In this document: positions 24,473 through 64,000 of the stretch, in pieces | How positions within the stretch are numbered: position 1 is the stretch's first letter | Layout of the letters: the number at the start of each line of letters is the position of its first letter | Source of the DNA: an uncultured Dehalococcoidaceae bacterium | GTDB taxonomy: Bacteria > Chloroflexota > Dehalococcoidia > Dehalococcoidales > RBG-16-60-22 | NCBI GenBank assembly: GCA_964597015.1 | Contig: CAZQWO010000001.1 | Coordinates: 1,291 to 65,290 of the forward strand | Direction: 5' to 3' | Length of the DNA stretch: 64,000 nucleotides | Program-made: the position numbers and the translations under genes | The notes under the pieces: model-generated | Seen by the model: the letters and a program-made list of their open reading frames with translations, nothing else | The model's database searches: none | Told to the model about the DNA's origin: nothing

Positions 24473-24504
24473 ACAAGCCGGTTCTTAATTGAATACGGGA
24501 ATCA

Positions 24505-24536
24505 GGAGAGAGGCGGTGCCTCTCTCCAATTTTTTT
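24505..24536 (+). terminator. rho-independent terminator
   Basis: GGAGAGAGG-CGGTG-CCTCTCTCC (perfect 9-bp stem) followed by AATTTTTTT. Confidence 0.75.
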
Positions 24537-24703
24537 ACCTTGCCCCGGATACCGCAAGACAAATGGCATGCGAATTTTAGAAAATATTTAGAAATCGGGC
24601 TCGCATCTTTACCTTTTATTTAGCATCATGGCCTTATCCTGTAAAGGCGAATAAAGCAAACGCATGTATGGAATAACGCTTATTACCTATGACTAAAGAG
24701 CTA

Positions 24704-56971: not shown

Positions 56972-57133
56972 TTAAGCCCCCTAAGAAAAAAGCAAGCTCT
57001 CAGATAATCAAGAGCCTGCCTTTAACACGCGTGTGAATTTTGCATTTACGCACGTTTAAGTGTAGCACAAATCAGCTTCAAAGTAAAGGCGGGGGAACAT
57101 ATGATTATTTGCTTTAAAAACACACGAATTATA

Positions 57134-57162
57134 TTGAACAAAATTTCTAGTTGTGTTATATT
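57134..57162 (+). promoter_or_regulatory. putative pyr operon promoter
   Basis: TTGAAC, 17-nt spacer, TATATT. Confidence 0.4.
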
Positions 57163-57176
57163 AATTCAGGACAAAA

Positions 57177-57268
57177 CCTTTAAGCTGGTCCGGTGAGGCT
57201 GGCAAGGACATAAAAGAGACACACCGCAACGTTGACCTCTTGCCAGCCCCGGCAGGGGGTTATTTTTA
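57177..57268 (+). promoter_or_regulatory. PyrR-binding attenuator leader
   Basis: PyrR-box-like GUCCGGUGAGGCU (57188-57200) lies within hairpin 57177-57207. Alternative antiterminator pairing: GGCTGGCAAG (57197-206) with CTTGCCAGCC (57239-248). Terminator/SD-sequestering hairpin CCTCTTGCC-AGCCCC-GGCAGGGGG (57236-57259) is followed by TTATTTTTA. Confidence 0.6.
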
Positions 57269-59278: not shown

Positions 59279-60579
59279 AACCATTACTGATTAAAGACGG
59301 CCAGATTATTGACCCGAGCCGGGGCATAGACGAGCGGGGCAGCCTGCTGCTCAGCGAAGGTAAAATAGAGTGGCATGGTGTGACCCCACCTCAGATTGAT
59401 TGCGAAATTCTGCACGCGCAGGGGATGGTGGTCTGCCCGGGGTTCGTTGACCTGCACTGCCACCTCAGGCAGCCCGGTTTTGAACAGAAGGAGACAATCG
59501 CCACCGGCACCCAGGCGGCGGCACGGGGAGGCTTCACCACCGTCTGCGCCATGCCCAATACCAGCCCGCCGCTGGACAATAAGGAAACCATAGACTATGT
59601 CATATCTGAGGCTGAGAAATCGGGGATTGTCCGCGTGCTGCCCATTGGCTGCGTCACCAGGGGCAGGGAGGGAAAAGAGCTGGCGGACATGGCGGCACTG
59701 GCTCAGGCGGGAGCCATCGGTTTCAGCGACGACGGCAGCCCGGTGAAAGACCCGGAAATAATGCGCCAGGCGCTGGAAAAGAGCAACGAGCTCGGCCTGC
59801 CGGTCATAGACCACTGCGAGGAGCCCTCACTCGTTGAGGGCGGGCAGATGAACGAAGGGGAGCTTGCCAAAAGGCTCGGCCTGCGCGGCATATCGTCGGC
59901 CTCCGAAGAGATTATGGTATCGCGGGACATTATGCTCGCCGGAATGACCGGGGGGCATGCGCACATCGCCCACGTCAGCACCGCGGGCGCGGTCGCCCTC
60001 ATCCGCGACGCCAAAAAGCGGGGAGTAAAGGTTACCGCCGAGGTCACCCCCCACCACCTCACCCTCACCGAGGAAGAGTGCAACGGCTACAACACCAACG
60101 CCAAGGTCTCGCCGCCTCTGCGCACGCGACGGGACAACCAGTCGCTGCTCAGGGGACTGAAAGACGGCACCATCGATATCATCGCCACCGACCATGCCCC
60201 GCACGCGCGGTCGGACAAGGAGTGCGATTTTGTCAAAGCGGCCTGCGGCATCGCCAATTTTGAGACCGCGCTGGGCAGCCTGCTCATTATAGTGCACAGC
60301 GGGCAGCTTGCGCTGGACCGACTCATCGCCAGGCTCACCTGTGAGCCAGCTAAACTTTTGAAAGACGACCTGCTCGGGACGCTGAAAATCGGGGCGCCCG
60401 CGGACGTAACCATCTTCGACCCGTATAAAGAGTGGACGGTCGACCCGGCGTCGTTCGTCTCTAAAGGAAAGAACACGCCGCTGGCCGGCCGGGTGCTCAA
60501 GGGCAAAACGATGGTCACCATCTACGGCGGCAAGCTGGTCTATAAAGATATCGCCGTTACCTTTATCGGGGAATACTAG
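59275..60579 (+). CDS. pyrC: dihydroorotase
   Basis: GFVDLHCHLRQPG metal-binding motif. DHAPH. ATGA overlap with pyrB. Confidence 0.9.
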   Translation: MKPLLIKDGQIIDPSRGIDERGSLLLSEGKIEWHGVTPPQIDCEILHAQGMVVCPGFVDLHCHLRQPGFEQKETIATGTQAAARGGFTTVCAMPNTSPPLDNKETIDYVISEAEKSGIVRVLPIGCVTRGREGKELADMAALAQAGAIGFSDDGSPVKDPEIMRQALEKSNELGLPVIDHCEEPSLVEGGQMNEGELAKRLGLRGISSASEEIMVSRDIMLAGMTGGHAHIAHVSTAGAVALIRDAKKRGVKVTAEVTPHHLTLTEEECNGYNTNAKVSPPLRTRRDNQSLLRGLKDGTIDIIATDHAPHARSDKECDFVKAACGIANFETALGSLLIIVHSGQLALDRLIARLTCEPAKLLKDDLLGTLKIGAPADVTIFDPYKEWTVDPASFVSKGKNTPLAGRVLKGKTMVTIYGGKLVYKDIAVTFIGEY

Positions 60580-60628
60580 AGGAGCTAATTTTAAAATCGG
60601 GGTGTTTAAGAGAGGCACAAATATAAGC

Positions 60629-60713
60629 AGGGAGTTTTAGAGGGGCGCAGCCCCTCTTCCCAGAATATCCCCCCTCTCCTTTGAAGGAGAGGGGGACACA
60701 GGGGGTAAGGTAG
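60629..60713. repeat. A-type twin-hairpin element, copy 1
   Basis: GTTTTAGAGGGGC-GCA-GCCCCTCT..CCCCCTCTCC-TTTGAA-GGAGAGGGGG..AGGGGGT. Near-identical to 62445-62532. A degenerate half copy (GGGGTGTTTAAGAGAGGC) lies at 60599-60616. Confidence 0.85.
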
Positions 60714-61841
60714 ATTACAAATAAAAAGACATCGCTGGTACTGGCCGACGGCTCGGTATACGAGGGCTTATCATTCGGCGCTGAGGTTGACGCCTACGGC
60801 GAGGTGGTCTTCAACACCAGCATGATAGGCTACCAGGAGATGCTGACCGACCCCTCTTACGCCGGGCAGATTGTGGTGCCCACTTACCCATTAATCGGCA
60901 ACTACGGCACCAGCCAGCAGGACGTTGAGTCGAATAGAATCCAGGTCAGGGGCTTCGTCGTCAGGGAGGAGTGCGTGCAGCCGAACCACTACCTGAACCA
61001 GAAGACCCTCCACGATTATCTGCTGGAAAATCATATCCCCGGCCTCCACGGCATTGACACGCGGTCGCTCACCCGCAAGCTGCGCTCGCACGGGGTGATG
61101 ATGGGCTACCTCACCGCCGAAAAGTCTCCCGAAGAGGCTCTGGCAGCCCTGAAAAGGTTGCCCGACTACGGCAGCGTTGATTTTGTAAGAAAGGTATCCA
61201 CCCCCCACCCCTACACCTGGGAGCCGGAGGCTGATGATGAAACCCTGCCTCATATCGTCGTGCTGGACTGCGGGCTGAAGTACAACATTTTGAGACTGTT
61301 AAAGAAGCAGGGCTGCCGCGTCACCGCCGTGCCCTGCGCCACATCGGCCAAAGACATATTGGGAATGAACCCCGACGGCATTTTGCTGTCCCCCGGCCCC
61401 GGCGACCCCGAGCTTTTGGATTATATCGTTGAAACGGTGAAGGGGCTGCTGGACAAAAGACCGATGATGGGCATCTGTCTGGGGAACCAGCTTATCGCCC
61501 GCGCCTTCGGCGGGAAGAATTTTAAGCTGAAGTTCGGCCACCGCGGCGGCAACCACCCCGTCAGGGATTTGAAAACGAGCCGGATACACATCACCGCCCA
61601 GAACCACGGCTACGCCGTTGACCCGGACACGTTGAAAGACGGCCTCGAGGTAACGCATATCAACCTGAACGACGGCACGGTGGAGGGTTTAAAACACAAG
61701 GAACTGCCCATCTTCTGCATCCAGTACCACTCCGAGGCCTCCCCCGGCCCCCTGGATAATACCTACCTCTTTGCGGATTTTATGAAGATGGTGATGGGAT
61801 TAATCCCCCTTAATCCCCCTTTTACAAAGGGGGAAATATAG
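60714..61841 (+). CDS. carA: carbamoyl-phosphate synthase small (glutaminase) subunit
   Basis: GYQEMLTDPSYAGQI, GICLGNQL, QYHSEASPGP. The conserved N-terminal strand KKTSLVLADGSVYEGLSFGA is encoded upstream of the first canonical start (GTG 60804). The frame opens after TAG 60711 and the only start-like codons are ATT 60714 and CTG 60735/60741, so the 5' end is uncertain. Confidence 0.8.
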   Translation: MTNKKTSLVLADGSVYEGLSFGAEVDAYGEVVFNTSMIGYQEMLTDPSYAGQIVVPTYPLIGNYGTSQQDVESNRIQVRGFVVREECVQPNHYLNQKTLHDYLLENHIPGLHGIDTRSLTRKLRSHGVMMGYLTAEKSPEEALAALKRLPDYGSVDFVRKVSTPHPYTWEPEADDETLPHIVVLDCGLKYNILRLLKKQGCRVTAVPCATSAKDILGMNPDGILLSPGPGDPELLDYIVETVKGLLDKRPMMGICLGNQLIARAFGGKNFKLKFGHRGGNHPVRDLKTSRIHITAQNHGYAVDPDTLKDGLEVTHINLNDGTVEGLKHKELPIFCIQYHSEASPGPLDNTYLFADFMKMVMGLIPLNPPFTKGEI

Positions 61842-61855
61842 CATGAGGGGGATTT
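61797..61855. repeat. B-type hairpin element, short copy (B0)
   Basis: TAATCCCCCTTAATCCCCC-TTTTACAAA-GGGGG..GAGGGGGATTT. It shares the 5' ~35 nt and the terminal GGGATT with units B1/B2, and it encodes the carA C-terminus IPLNPPFTKGEI. Confidence 0.75.
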
Positions 61856-61856
61856 A

Positions 61857-62267
61857 ATGTTGCCCTACAACAGGAACCTGAAACAGTATTCAAGGCAACT
61901 CAGAGAGAATATGACCGATGCGGAAAGGCAACTCTGGGCGAAGATAAGGGTGAAACAACTTAAGGGACACCAGTTCTACCGGCAGAAACCCATCGGCGAT
62001 TACATAGTCGACTTCTTTTGTCCCAGGGCAAAGCTGGCTATCGAAATCGACGGTAGCCACCACCTCGTTGGTGAGACGATTGAGTATGACAGGATAAGGG
62101 ATGATTACCTGAGCAGTCTTGGTCTGAGAGTGCTGAGGTTTAGTAACACCGATGTACTGACAAATATCGAGGGCGTCGCTAAGAGAATAGAGGAGAAAAT
62201 CCCCCTTAATCCCCCTTTTTCAAAGGGGGAGACGGCAACTTCTCCCTCTGCGAAGGGGGAGACATGA
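61857..62267 (+). CDS. DUF559 (Vsr-like endonuclease fold) domain protein
   Basis: MTDAERQLWAKIR..FYRQKPIGDYIVDFFCPRAKLAIEIDGSHH..DRIRDDYLSSLGLRVLRFSNTDV is the DUF559 pattern. The last ~22 aa (IPLNPPFSKGETATSPSAKGET) are read from repeat B1. Confidence 0.8.
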   Translation: MLPYNRNLKQYSRQLRENMTDAERQLWAKIRVKQLKGHQFYRQKPIGDYIVDFFCPRAKLAIEIDGSHHLVGETIEYDRIRDDYLSSLGLRVLRFSNTDVLTNIEGVAKRIEEKIPLNPPFSKGETATSPSAKGET

Positions 62268-62439
62268 TAGCTTCTCCCTTTGGTAAAGGGAGAATGAGAG
62301 GGATTGTAGAAATCCCCCTTTGTCCAGAGAAAATCCCCCTTAATCCCCCTTTTTCAAAGGGGGAGATGGCAACTTCTCCCTTTGCGAAGGGGGAGACATG
62401 ATAGCTTCTCCCTTTGGTAAAGGGAGAGTGAGAGGGATT
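62195..62439. repeat. two tandem B-type 111-nt units (B1 62195-62305, B2 62329-62439), 134-bp period
   Basis: By direct comparison the units differ at 3 of 111 positions. Each contains hairpins CCCCC-TTTTTCAAA-GGGGG, TCTCCC..GGGAGA and TTCTCCCTTT-GGT-AAAGGGAGAA, with termini AAAATCCCCC...GAGGGATT. Confidence 0.85.
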
Positions 62440-62444
62440 TCAAC

Positions 62445-62532
62445 GGGGGTGTTTTAGAGGGGCTGCGCCCCTCTCCCAAAAACCTCCCCCCTCTCCTTTG
62501 AAGGAGAGGGGGACTAAGGGGGTGAGATAGAG
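62445..62532. repeat. A-type twin-hairpin element, copy 2
   Basis: Same as copy 1 except that the hairpin-1 loop is TGC instead of GCA, a few spacer changes, and 2 extra nt before the ATG. Confidence 0.85.
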
Positions 62533-62955
62533 ATGAACAATAAGAAGAAAATTAAAATATTAAATCAACTACTTGATGATGGCAAGCAATTAATCGGATT
62601 ATCTCGCAATAATCAACGCTACCCGCAATGGTTAGCGCAAGTCAGAAAAACGTTAGAAATGTTGTTCAATAATAATTCAAGAGAAGCGATTAATTTTAAT
62701 GAGCATGTGCGAAGTTGGAATGCTTTTACACCACCAACCGAACAGGAAAAGCAAGAAAGATATGATAAAGAGTTAGCAATAAACTTGGATTACGCACAAG
62801 AACTAATCAGTGGGTTAGAGAGTGAAATAGAAATTCGTAAAAAATTTCGTCTGGAACTTGCTTGTCAAAAAGCAAGCCAATGCTTGCGCAAGTTCTGGCA
62901 AGTTACCGTAGAAGCCGCGGTTGAAGGCTTAATTAATAACCTTAAGAAACACTGA
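62533..62955 (+). CDS. hypothetical protein encoded by a strikingly AT-rich orphan ORF
   Basis: 140 aa (MNNKKKIKILNQLLDDGKQ..). The ATG immediately follows A-element copy 2. Composition is visibly far more AT-rich than all flanking genes. Confidence 0.55.
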   Translation: MNNKKKIKILNQLLDDGKQLIGLSRNNQRYPQWLAQVRKTLEMLFNNNSREAINFNEHVRSWNAFTPPTEQEKQERYDKELAINLDYAQELISGLESEIEIRKKFRLELACQKASQCLRKFWQVTVEAAVEGLINNLKKH

Positions 62956-62976
62956 CAACTTAAAGGAGTAAAATTT

Positions 62977-64000
62977 TTGAAACTCTCTAAAGTCTTGATT
63001 ATAGGGTCGGGGCCCATCATAATCGGGCAGGCGGCGGAGTTTGACTACGCCGGCACGCAGGCCTGCAAGGCCATGCGCGAGGAGGGCGTCATTTCGGTAC
63101 TGGTCAACTCCAACCCGGCCACCATCATGACCGACGAGGACATCGCCGACGTCGTCTACATTGAGCCGCTCACCGTGGAGGTGATTTCCCGCATCATAGA
63201 AAGGGAGCGACCCGACGGCCTTTTGCCCACTCTCGGCGGGCAGACCGGCCTGAATCTGGCCGTGGCCCTGGCCGACGCCGGTGTTCTGGACAAGTACAAT
63301 GTGAAATGCCTCGGCACGCCCATCCAGACCATCCGCAACGCCGAGGACAGGGAGCTTTTCAAGCAATTATTAATCAGAATCGGCCAGCCGGTGCCGCCCA
63401 GCAAAACGGTCAACACGCTGGAAGATGCCCGCAAAGTGGCGGCGGAAATCGGTCTGCCGGTCATCATCCGCCCCGGCTACACGCTGGGGGGGACGGGGGG
63501 CGGCATGGCCTATACCTGGGACGAGCTCGACCAGGTGGCCAGAAGCGGGCTCGCCGCCAGCCCCATCCACCAGGTGCTCGTCGAACAATCGGTCGTTGGC
63601 TGGAAGGAAATCGAGTACGAGGTCATGCGCGACGCCGCCAATACCTGTATCACCGTCTGCAACATGGAGAACATCGACCCCATGGGCGTGCACACCGGCG
63701 ACAGCATCGTGGTCGCCCCCAGCCAGACGCTGACCAACAAGGAATACCAGATGCTGCGCACCGCCGGCCTGGATATAATCCGGGCGCTGGGGATTGAGGG
63801 GGGCTGCAATGTCCAGTTCGCCCTGGACCCCAAAAGCCAGCAGTACTACGTTATCGAGGTCAACCCCCGCGTCAGCCGCTCTTCCGCCCTGGCCAGCAAG
63901 GCCACCGGCTACCCCATAGCCCGCGTCGCCTCCAAGATAGCGGTGGGCAAACGGCTTGACGAGATACCCAACGCCGTCACCGGCAAGACCATGGCCTCCT
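62977..64000 (+). CDS. carB: carbamoyl-phosphate synthase large subunit, 5' part; continues beyond the right edge
   Basis: Not in the track because there is no stop in the window. Own translation from TTG 62977 behind AAAGGAG: [71 protein letters not shown].. Confidence 0.9.

Follow-up and report, generated by a model that had tools for sequence, protein, structure and literature searches.

Two look-alike segments of a 64-kb stretch of Dehalococcoidia DNA (the window, by which we mean the whole stretch that was analyzed) are, we hold with good confidence, copies of a generic dispersed repeat, a non-coding element of ~100 nt that is abundant in Dehalococcoidia and in neighboring uncultured lineages. 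In it, a REP-like palindrome is joined to a triplex motif of the BoxC/PIT/TM type. A previous, sequence-only reading of this DNA had suggested that the element might be a leader or a cis-regulatory RNA and not a generic intergenic repeat; the many unrelated sites, both orientations and varied loop triplets that we found across the family largely refute that view.

The two segments lie where that reading had placed them, to within 1 to 2 nt, and each carries a hairpin 1, a hairpin 2 and then a G-run. The features of the two copies are as follows.

60629-60727, + strand: copy 1 of the composite repeat, comprising both hairpins, the G-rich third strand, and the A-rich tail; 98.6 bits, E = 2e-26 with covariance model R1, and membership in the repeat family.
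62446-62544, + strand: copy 2 of the composite repeat; 95.7 bits, E = 2e-25 with R1.
60639-60657, + strand: hairpin 1 of copy 1, AGAGGGGC-GCA-GCCCCTCT, from the repeat search.
62456-62474, + strand: hairpin 1 of copy 2, AGAGGGGC-TGC-GCCCCTCT, its loop reverse-complementary to that of copy 1.
60599-60616, + strand: degenerate extra half module resembling hairpin 1, GGGGTGTTTAAGAGAGGC, 5' of copy 1, recognized from the repeat family.

R1 was built from 26 family members and, when run on the 64 kb, returned both window copies at E about 1e-26 and everything else at 30 bits or less. The ungapped repeat (60630-60714 and 62447-62531) is 85% identical between the copies, or 87% with end gaps free. 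The copies do not differ in hairpin 2, CCCCCTCTCC-TTTGAA-GGAGAGGGGG (60670-60695 and 62487-62512), for which 100 shuffles give an expectation of 0 matches. GGGAGTTTT stands 5' of hairpin 1, and an AT-rich spacer leads into hairpin 2. The half module upstream of copy 1 is also present at loci L069, L104, L122, and L034. Copy 1 fills the spacer between pyrC and carA, and copy 2 ends at the ATG (62533) of an orphan open reading frame (ORF).

Two scans, which covered Dehalococcoidia and Chloroflexota genomes and metagenomes, yielded more than 170 copies among the matches listed. At least 120 genome stretches contain hairpin 2, and a scan for hairpin 1 by itself gave at least 120 more stretches, from metagenomes. 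R1 recovered another 54 full copies scoring at least 50 bits among the matches listed, with up to 4 to 5 per 8 kb in Dehalococcoidia metagenome-assembled genomes. The copies of the family adjoin unrelated genes, ispG, purE, and dnaJ among them, and occur in either orientation. The family unit consists of hairpin 1, which is a GC-rich perfect palindrome, followed by hairpin 2 with its pyrimidine and purine arms, then by a G-rich mirror segment 4 to 5 nt farther on, and finally by an A-rich tail with the consensus TAGATAAACAAT. Compensatory changes across the family support 8 of the 9 stem pairs of hairpin 1, and at least three coexisting subtypes of arm and third strand share this one hairpin. 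Mosaics and head-to-head doublets, or inverted pairs of two subtypes, occur, and the element coincides with assembly breaks. Our literature search did not find the composite Dehalococcoidia element described in the publications searched, which is no proof of absence.

The loops of hairpin 1 are not conserved, and many different triplets occur in the family. The GCA and TGC loops of the two window copies had been attributed to a single inversion of the whole palindrome, and this remains the best reading: the two 19-mers are 100% reverse-complementary, and reverse-complement loop pairs recur both family-wide and at one orthologous locus, where L154 has GAA and L233 has TTC. Across the family, GAA loops number 57 and TTC loops 12, significantly more than the 1.5 TTC loops expected; a global statistic for reverse-complement pairs gave P = 0.12 against a position-independent null that already contains flips. 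When read on the G-rich strand, hairpin 1 loops are GNA at 72 of 115 loci and TNC at 18 of 115. Hairpin 2 shows a comparable pair, TTTGAA in the window and TTCAAA in L252. Small inversions at perfect palindromes, which arise by template switching at quasi-palindromes, are well known in plastid spacers. The family resembles these in that the loop alone becomes its reverse complement while the stem is unchanged, and it differs from the plastid type in that the flip recurs within a multicopy bacterial repeat family.

Hairpin 2 and the "SD-like" AGGGGGTRAGG that follows it together are a predicted class II purine-motif intrastrand triplex motif of the BoxC/PIT/TM type. A scan allowing variable stem lengths, with the third segment 1 to 6 nt 3' of the purine arm and at most 1 mismatch, found seven such motifs in the 64 kb, all of which fall within 60670-62528, compared with 0 in 100 shuffles of the window.

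60670-60711, + strand: triplex motif of copy 1, CCCCCTCTCCT-TTGA-AGGAGAGGGGG-ACACA-GGGGGTAAGGT; 11 triads, 1 mismatch.
62487-62528, + strand: triplex motif of copy 2, third strand GGGGGTGAGAT; 11 triads, 1 mismatch.
61801-61834, - strand: triplex motif TCCCCCTTT-GTA-AAAGGGGGA-TTA-AGGGGGATT, over the carA stop; triplex scan.
62197-62230, - strand: triplex motif over the 3' end of DUF559; triplex scan.
62331-62364, - strand: triplex motif in the second copy of a 113-nt repeat; triplex scan and repeat search.
62272-62305, + strand: triplex motif TTCTCCCTTT-GGT-AAAGGGAGAA-TG-AGAGGGATT; triplex scan.
62407-62439, + strand: triplex motif, second copy of that at 62272-62305; triplex scan.

In both copies of the composite repeat, the homopyrimidine 5' arm CCCCCTCTCCT and the homopurine 3' arm AGGAGAGGGGG form a perfect hairpin, and the third strand, across a second loop of 5 nt, is antiparallel to the purine arm (G.GC, A.AT, and T.AT triads). 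The last segment of the copy 1 motif is the very sequence that had been called SD-like. Among 140 hairpins 2 picked regardless of the third strand, 113 (81%) have a third strand with at most 1 mismatch, compared with 0.6% of control positions. The third strand mirrors the purine arm across subfamilies (AAGGGGAAGGGGA with AGGGGATAGGGTT, AAGGGAGGGGGA with AGGGGGAGGGTT, and AAAGGGGG with GGGGGATT), and at least six distinct pairs of arm and third strand are found among related loci. What keeps the G-run conserved appears to be its mirror relation to the purine arm of hairpin 2, and not a match to the anti-Shine-Dalgarno (anti-SD) sequence.

The closest published relative is the E. coli BoxC/PIT/TM_ECO motif, a G/C-rich class II intrastrand triplex motif described by Holder et al. 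2015 (PMC4666352), who cite Hoyne/Maher 2000 on motifs of this class. TM_ECO is published as CCCTCTCCC-TGTG-GGAGAGGG-CCG-GGGTGAGGG, its triplex folding was shown in vitro and not in vivo, and it is more common upstream than downstream of ORFs (PMC4666352). The core of our element matches TM_ECO, and triplex folding is predicted for it. In both, a pyrimidine arm is followed by a loop, the purine arm, a second, short loop, and the G-rich mirror strand, and the cores are near-identical (CCCTCTCC / GGAGAGGG / GGGTGAGG); both are intergenic, multicopy, spread across many phyla, found as inverted pairs of two subtypes, and located at indel-prone loci. The differences are that the motif is fused here to hairpin 1 and an A-rich tail in a unit of ~100 nt, that its stems are 10 to 11 nt rather than 8 to 9 nt, that at least three subtypes of arm and third strand share one hairpin 1, that the GTTTTAGAGGGGC subfamily has a strong sense bias where TM_ECO has none, and that the third strand coincides with the host's extended SD and, in a subset of copies, lies at the spacing of a ribosome-binding site (RBS).

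REP, BIME, and REPIN elements are mobilized by RAYT (Y1/HUH) transposases. Our element resembles them in its short GC-rich palindromes, which are repeated, intergenic, and arranged in mosaics and head-to-head doublets, and it resembles REP in its GNA loops, which favor DNA hairpins, and in its association with assembly breaks. It differs in that a GTAG/CGTC tag lies 5' of neither palindrome, a lone GTAG being found 3' of the third strand (GGTGAGGTAGAT), and in that REP elements lack a third strand of the triplex type. Elements of the MITE-like kind (Correia/NEMIS, ERIC, pneumococcal BOX, and RUP) are likewise non-autonomous, ~100 nt long, co-transcribed with flanking genes, polymorphic for presence and absence, and able to supply downstream signals, and one pair of our loci has a 7-bp flanking repeat; our element, however, has no recognized terminal inverted repeats, and its flanking repeat is confined to that one example.

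Comparison with close relatives shows that, at both sites of the window, the hairpin block has been acquired or lost as one discrete piece.

60573-60703, + strand: block of 128 nt (3 nt of boundary ambiguity) present in the window and missing between the orthologous pyrC and carA of Dehalococcoidia bacterium SG8_51_3 (L252).
62449-62512, + strand: block of 64 nt, hairpin 1 plus hairpin 2, missing in L253 and L255; comparison of relatives.

At the pyrC-carA junction, L252 has the GGTGAGGTAGATA module only, and L253 and L255 have no element, their carA ATG lying directly against the stop codon of pyrC. At the site of copy 2, L253 and L255 retain just AyTAAGGGGGTGAGGTAGAAAAGATG. Further filled and empty sites are provided by L134/L244 and by L182/L203, the latter pair being our one example of a flanking direct repeat (7 bp, CTTGGTG); other indels are bounded by G-runs and fit slippage deletion equally well. 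Terminal inverted repeats are not evident in the element. The G-run module persists without the hairpins at L252, L253, L255, and L134, which suggests that the G-run may be a functional RBS by itself rather than merely a part of the repeat.

We propose that the window holds two independent copies of the repeat family, each made of hairpin 1, the triplex motif, and the A-rich tail, and that the family would spread as selfish or neutral DNA by a DNA-level mechanism, probably one that acts on single-strand hairpins. No mobilizing enzyme was identified from the 64 kb and the fragments of other loci. DUF559, considered as the mobilizing nuclease, was rejected as a general explanation, since it neighbors the element at just 3 of the 240 loci that carry one. 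Sense-oriented copies directly 5' of a gene would keep or supply its RBS, and they may be tolerated in operons because the third strand GGGGGTGAGG is near the extended SD of the host, GGAGGTGA.

Two genes of the window bear on this proposal.

60714-61841, + strand: carA, with an ATT start and with its last 13 codons entering a reverse-oriented triplex motif; Pfam and orthologues.
62533-62955, + strand: orphan ORF of 140 amino acids and 36% GC, in a variable slot that runs from a conserved RBS-ATG to the carB RBS.

Copy 1 had been said to end at the initiation position of carA, and it does: an in-frame TAG at 60711-60713 is followed by ATT at 60714. carA probably initiates at this ATT. The Pfam CPSase_sm_chain profile begins at residue 8 of the ATT-initiated translation, and orthologues start with MTNKKT, MSKKT, or MNKKT at the homologous codon; gene callers place the start 30 to 36 codons too late. 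The first six codons after the two copies had been reported to match at 13 of 18 bases, and the count is right if a 2-nt register shift is made. It does not speak for a shared unit of greater length, because orthologues that lack the element have these carA codons, which are thus native. Genes native to the window (42098 and 42612) have GGAGGTGA followed by 5 nt and ATG; copy 1 has GGGGGTAA, 5 nt, and ATT, and copy 2 has GGGGGTGA, 7 nt, and ATG, so that the SD spacing of both is native-like. A single G-U wobble separates the A-type third strand GGGGGTGAGG from the extended SD GGAGGTGA of the clade. Both copies probably act as RBSs, one for carA and the other for the orphan ORF. Under our proposal the co-opted RBS would drive both genes, with ATT now the start of carA, and the 128-nt block would break the translational coupling of carA to pyrC.

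A rather unlikely alternative is that the element is a portable leader for translation initiation, in which the whole element or its 3' module is kept as a strong RBS, sometimes with the start codon, and the hairpins keep the G-run single-stranded or stabilize the mRNA. Orientation favors it: the GTTTTAGAGGGGC subfamily, known from metagenomes, counts 69 sense copies against 26 with respect to downstream genes and 43 against 8 between co-directional genes (P = 7e-7). The genome-scan set, however, has 19 sense and 12 antisense copies, a bias that is not significant, and about 27 to 35% of copies are antisense or face the 3' end of a gene. The orientation of the GTTTTAGAGGGGC subfamily is not neutral, and either an RNA-level role or a replication-strand effect may underlie it; GC skew across the window is weak, too weak for a replication-strand assignment. 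Starts of long ORFs are enriched 1 to 12 nt after GGGGGTRA, following about 15 to 20% of the G-runs of the family (28 of 133) and 4% (5 of 134) in a reverse-complement control, but most sense copies lie more than 20 nt away from a start. A conserved module, AyTAAGGGGGTGAGGTAGA..ATG, stands 5' of four unrelated ORFs in four lineages and also 5' of purE in L134, L244, and L218, and the native-like spacing of both window copies points the same way. Against a leader, the third strand follows the purine arm and not the anti-SD, the C- and D-type third strands GGGGATAGGG and GGGGGAGGG are poorer SDs, and sequence comparison indicates that relatives express carA without the element. Of the claim that the copies provide an RBS, the G-runs at native SD spacing and the enrichment of starts are supported.

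A bolder scenario, which we consider improbable, makes the block of hairpins 1 and 2 a mobile unit that homes to the extended SD and builds the triplex motif from the RBS of its host (GGGGGTGAGG), perhaps by mirror-repeat or triplex recognition; linked to it is the idea that the RBS-ATG 5' of carB is a cassette-exchange slot for unrelated low-GC ORFans. Homing would explain the surviving G-run at L252, L253, L255, and L134, the sense bias, and the tolerance of the element in operons. A homologue search for the orphan ORF returned itself and one relative, at 81% identity. If such a slot exists, ORFan genes of low GC would be exchanged within a biosynthetic operon that is essential.

REP elements have roles in mRNA stabilization and processing, and the hairpins could by analogy be an intercistronic stabilizer, processing site, or insulator that sets the relative levels of pyrC, carA, the inserted genes, and carB. 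We think this very improbable. The RNA folds are strong (-56 and -45 kcal/mol, with z-scores of -3.8 and -2.7, for copy 1 and copy 2, in ViennaRNA folds that model Watson-Crick pairs alone), copies lie between co-directional cistrons, and the GTTTTAGAGGGGC subfamily is sense-biased, but stem mismatches of the G-T and A-C kinds are equally frequent (4 versus 4), a symmetry that gives no strand-specific RNA signal. Nor is there a U-tract or an excess of promoter- or terminator-like sites. As a terminator or promoter the element was rejected, consensus sites being no more numerous than in shuffles; the spacer of copy 2 contributes one terminator-like site on the minus strand. The E. coli triplex motifs, too, showed neither promoter nor terminator activity (PMC4666352).

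The element is not a dedicated regulator of the pyrimidine operon. A cis-regulatory RNA was one option of the sequence-only reading, and we give almost no credence to such an RNA dedicated to pyrimidine or arginine genes, whether as a riboswitch, as an attenuator of the PyrR type, or as a switch that sequesters the SD, even though the element sits in a pyrR-pyrB-pyrC-carA operon, its pyrimidine arms resemble the anti-SD, and the minimum-free-energy fold of copy 2 pairs CCUCC with the G-run. The comparison with Rfam that the reading had suggested, made with gathering thresholds on all 64 kb and with E values of up to 10 on 60400-62800, returned chance microRNA and snoRNA matches only and no family match. 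The same element adjoins unrelated genes in many genomes, the orthologous pyrC-carA junction lacks it in L253 and L255 and has a reduced form in L252, its loops are not conserved, and the + strand has no U-tract directly after either hairpin. A PyrR-binding attenuator was rejected in particular: AGAGAGGC resembles the PyrR loop and the operon starts with pyrR, but RF00515 has no match and relatives lack the element. Local duplication of the carA leader and first codons, with copy 2 recruited for the orphan ORF, is scarcely tenable and was rejected on pairwise identities: the copies are direct repeats 1817 nt apart with 13 of 18 first-codon bases matching, but each is nearer to unrelated loci (93%, in the case of copy 1 to L144, and 90.5%) than to the other (87%), the G-run and ATG of copy 2 are present in relatives without copy 1, and the carA codons are native.

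To our knowledge, the function of the BoxC/PIT/TM triplex motif has been an unanswered question since the 1990s. The Dehalococcoidia version adds clean filled and empty sites, co-varying subtypes, and a sense bias combined with a third strand that also reads as the extended SD of the clade, all of which make this old question more testable. For annotation, the dispersed repeat explains assembly breaks, odd C-terminal tails (IPLNPPFSKGE), and the miscalled start of carA, and the variable ORFan slot in the car operon should be flagged.

Both segments belong to a composite repeat, present in many copies, that joins a REP-like palindrome to a class II triplex motif. The sequence-only reading had described two copies, the first ending at the carA initiation position and the second at the ATG of an orphan ORF, and the repeat search, the Pfam profile, and the orthologues all confirm that description. 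They lie in a pyrimidine operon ordered pyrR, pyrB/I, pyrC, copy 1, carA, DUF559, two 113-nt repeats, copy 2, a 140-aa orphan ORF, and carB, in an uncultured Dehalococcoidia bacterium whose CarA shares 88% identity with its counterpart in "Dehalococcoidia bacterium SG8_51_3" (L252; L numbers denote fetched genome or metagenome loci).

60629-60727, forward strand: copy 1, before carA
62446-62544, forward strand: copy 2, before the orphan ORF
61857-62267: DUF559 gene (Vsr-like endonuclease fold), inserted between carA and carB
62193-62305 and 62327-62439: 113-nt direct repeat, 97% identity, period 134 nt

The repeat search of the window paired 60630-60714 with 62447-62531 as an 85-nt direct repeat (ungapped identity, 85%), in which hairpin 2 is identical and the hairpin-1 19-mers are mutually reverse-complementary (100%). 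The 26-nt hairpin 2 had no match in 100 dinucleotide-preserving shuffles. Copy 1 ends in an in-frame TAG (60711-60713) followed by ATT, and copy 2 ends at ATG 62533. We place carA initiation at ATT 60714 because the Pfam CPSase_sm_chain profile starts at residue 8 of the translation initiated there and because orthologous CarA N-termini (MTNKKT, MSKKT, or MNKKT) fall at the homologous codon. Automatic gene callers place the start 30-36 codons too late, cutting CarA by as many residues, because no ATG, GTG, or TTG occurs at the start (60711-60716; ATT in the window versus ATA at L252 2998-3003). In more distant relatives, carA starts with ATG immediately after the pyrC stop.

When one genome per species was scanned for the exact pattern CCCCCTCTCC-N6-GGAGAGGGGG, hairpin 2 turned up in at least 120 stretches from many phyla; among the matches listed, Dehalococcoidia, other Chloroflexota, and some "Deltaproteobacteria" MAGs set it in the window-type twin-hairpin unit, in both orientations. 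Hairpin 1 alone (GTTTTAGAGGGGC-N3-GCCCCTCT) occurred in at least 120 metagenome stretches in a pattern scan. From an alignment of 26 copies, RNAalifold recovered both hairpins, with compensatory changes in 8 of 9 hairpin-1 pairs, and the covariance model scored copies 1 and 2 at 98.6 and 95.7 bits, respectively. Apart from these two, the model detected no full copy in the window; in the fetched loci, another 54 copies scored at least 50 bits, as many as 4-5 per 8 kb. Genes next to family members are unrelated to pyrimidine synthesis (rseP/ispG in L069; purE, dnaJ, and others elsewhere). The element had been proposed to be something other than a generic intergenic repeat, a view not supported in light of its many copies, unrelated gene neighbors, and occurrence in either orientation; it matches no curated RNA family in Rfam. 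Several metagenome contigs of the same population (L002, L003, L009, L010) terminate within copy 2, the effect that a dispersed repeat has on assemblies. A hairpin at 24497-24590 (AGAGAGGC-GGT-GCCTCTCT, then a T-run) reaches 28 bits with the covariance model and looks like an ordinary intrinsic terminator resembling hairpin 1, not a family member.

The conserved words GGGGTGAGG and GGAGAGGGG pointed us to the E. coli triplex motifs of Holder et al. 2015, formerly named BoxC and PIT elements, whose consensus is CCCTCTCCC-TGTG-GGAGAGGG-CCG-GGGTGAGGG (PMC4666352). The window motif, CCCCCTCTCCT-TTGA-AGGAGAGGGGG-ACACA-GGGGGTAAGGT, is built like these: a pyrimidine arm is followed by a purine arm and then by a third strand mirroring the purine arm in antiparallel orientation, with G.GC, T.AT, and A.AT triads predicted from the window sequence. 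Our own ITxF-like scan assigned 11 triads with one mismatch to each copy and found five further motifs, all seven lying inside 60670-62528 (1.9 kb around carA), with none elsewhere in the 64-kb window and none in 100 shuffles. A compatible third strand stands within 1-7 nt of 113 of 140 hairpins selected without any third-strand condition, versus 0.6% of control positions, and it varies as the mirror of the purine arm (AAGGGGAAGGGGA with AGGGGATAGGGTT, AAGGGAGGGGGA with AGGGGGAGGGTT, AAAGGGGG with GGGGGATT). What had been described as a "Shine-Dalgarno (SD)-like AGGGGGT" is thus the third strand in an already known type of motif, and its conservation, judged by sequence, tracks the hairpin and not the anti-SD. 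Inverted pairs of type A and type B are reported for the E. coli motif and are paralleled by head-to-head doublets (L057 6098-6256, L110 3825-3982, L116 3255-3411), in which a single central hairpin 1 is common to an A-type motif and an opposite-side B-type motif (TCCCCCTTCCCTT.../AGGGGGATAGGT). The triplex-motif half is already known; the searchable literature yielded no description of the composite Dehalococcoidia unit of roughly 100 nt, with its shared hairpin 1, several subtypes that co-vary, a bias toward the sense orientation, and a third strand coincident with the SD.

Comparison of close relatives shows at the sequence level that the block is present or absent, gained or lost as a unit. 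In L253 and L255 (CarA 87-89% identical), the pyrC stop immediately adjoins the carA ATG, with no spacer and no element; the L252 junction (ATCGGGGAGGTGAGGTAG/ATAACAAAC) holds the 3' module alone, which also provides the final pyrC codons, the stop, and the ATA at the start position; and the window has 128 extra nt. At the copy 2 site, L253 and L255 have only AyTAAGGGGGTGAGGTAGAAAAGATG, which the window exceeds by a 64-nt block of hairpin 1 and hairpin 2, and the element of L252, complete at this site, has the hairpin-2 loop TTCAAA, the reverse complement of TTTGAA in the window. Two further orthologous pairs are filled in one locus and empty in the other: a 59-nt triplex-motif module 5' of purE distinguishes L134 (975-1050) from L244 (318-440), and a complete element of 88 nt, between 7-bp direct repeats, CTTGGTG, which resemble a target-site duplication, distinguishes L182 from L203. 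Indel boundaries at G-runs would fit insertion and slippage deletion equally.

We infer that the element behaves as selfish or neutral DNA, spreading or decaying via hairpin-prone single-stranded intermediates. No mobilizing enzyme was identified, DUF559 adjoining the element in just 3 of 240 loci. The A-type third strand is one G-U wobble from the extended SD of the clade; because of this near match, sense copies directly 5' of a gene would preserve translation initiation, and the element would therefore be tolerated inside operons. The window insertion would have broken the pyrC-carA stop/start coupling present in relatives and left carA with its ATT start (ATA in SG8_51_3) 5 nt 3' of the G-run.

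By crude ORF calls, 37 of the 56 model hits (the two window copies and 54 from genome-scan loci) point their 3' end at a gene start and 19 at a gene end; for the 5' end, the split is 26 and 26. Between co-directional genes, the genome-scan set is not significantly biased (19 sense versus 12 antisense). Among the metagenome matches listed for the GTTTTAGAGGGGC subfamily, the downstream gene is on the same strand in 69 and the opposite strand in 26, the upstream gene in 75 and 27, and copies between co-directional genes are 43 sense versus 8 antisense (P = 7e-7). The E. coli motif, TM_ECO, also lies upstream of ORFs more frequently, at variable distance, and showed neither promoter nor terminator activity (PMC4666352). 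The sense bias of the GTTTTAGAGGGGC subfamily could instead be a replication strand effect, as for single-stranded DNA transposons; GC skew across the window is weak and does not identify the replication strand.

A portable 5' leader, carrying ribosome binding site (RBS) and start, had also been proposed. Long ORFs start 1-12 nt past GGGGGTRA in 28 of 133 cases versus 5 of 134 reverse-complement controls, about six of the 28 being probably spurious TTG codons within the consensus GGTTGATAA. Native strong RBSs in the window read GGAGGTGA plus 5 nt plus ATG, copy 1 reads GGGGGTAA plus 5 nt plus ATT, and copy 2 reads GGGGGTGA plus 7 nt plus ATG. The exact position expected of an RBS is occupied by a minority of copies, both window copies among them; the majority lie away from it, and roughly a third are wrongly oriented. 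RBS use is plausible for the two window copies; selection for such a leader in the 3' module is unlikely. A REP-like role as mRNA stabilizer or insulator is more doubtful still. That the element is a riboswitch or PyrR attenuator specific to the pyr operon is highly improbable, as it stands beside unrelated genes and is missing from the pyrC-carA junction of relatives. Local duplication of copy 1 into copy 2 has equally little to recommend it: copy 1 shares 87% identity with copy 2 but 93% and 92% with family copies in the unrelated contigs L144 and L160, and copy 2 is closest to L212 (90.5%), so the two are independent members of the dispersed family.

For hairpin 1, 121 hits from the 120 metagenome stretches listed were grouped by their flanks into 106 locus clusters, and each loop type was counted once per cluster. 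Among the matches listed, the 115 loops comprise GAA (57), TTC (12), GTA (11), TAT (6), TAC (6), TTT (5), AAA (3), and others. TTC ranks second despite three differences from GAA (12 versus 1.5 expected under positional independence, P about 8e-8), and the orthologous loci L154 and L233 carry GAA and TTC, respectively, in flanks judged by eye to be about 90% identical; both observations support the proposal that the loop difference between the window copies arose by inversion. A global reverse-complement-pair statistic under the same null was not significant (P = 0.12). The loop itself is not a conserved signal. On the G-rich strand, 72 of the 115 loops listed are GNA and 18 are TNC, and in the stems A-C and G-T mismatches are equally common, a combination that leans weakly toward DNA-level rather than RNA-level structure; C(GNA)G triloops are reportedly exceptionally stable in DNA, in work by Hirao (1994) and Yoshizawa (1997).

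Several minor observations concern the surrounding locus. The 113-nt repeat comprises three hairpins, two being triplex motifs on opposite strands, and gives rise to a spurious 45-aa ORF (62264-62401). The C-terminal tails of CarA (LIPLNPPFTKGEI; 61800-61841) and of the DUF559 protein (IPLNPPFSKGETATSPSAKGET; 62190-62267) are translated reverse-oriented triplex-motif repeats, stop codons included, and an IPLNPP(F/L)(S/R)KGE tail also ends CarA orthologues P0004, P0005, P0012, and P0018. Triplex-motif repeats of 36 nt at 61802, 62198, and 62332 flank the DUF559 gene, which is kept at the orthologous site in L253 and L255 and missing from L252. From a conserved ...AAGGGGGTGAG(G/A)TAGA..ATG module to the carB RBS, four related lineages hold four mutually unrelated low-GC ORFs (36-40% versus 57%), none with a Pfam match, and the window ORF has one homologue among 5.8 billion proteins; the carA-carB interval looks like a variable ORFan slot within the operon.

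Table. Apparent ORFan slot between carA and carB (locus, slot coordinates, ORF length)
Window, 62533-62976, 140 aa
L252, 4281-4948, 220 aa
L253, 4701-5573, 282 aa
L255, 4831-5636, 268 aa

No PyrR-binding element was matched by Rfam anywhere in the window. A 31-codon ORF called just 5' of pyrR (L001 7827-7922; window about 57101-57196) could, by analogy with Thermus, encode a leader peptide for the operon. The carB start is apparently TTG at 62977, preceded by AAGGAGTAAAA; this TTG is kept in L252 and L253, and L255 has ATG one codon upstream.
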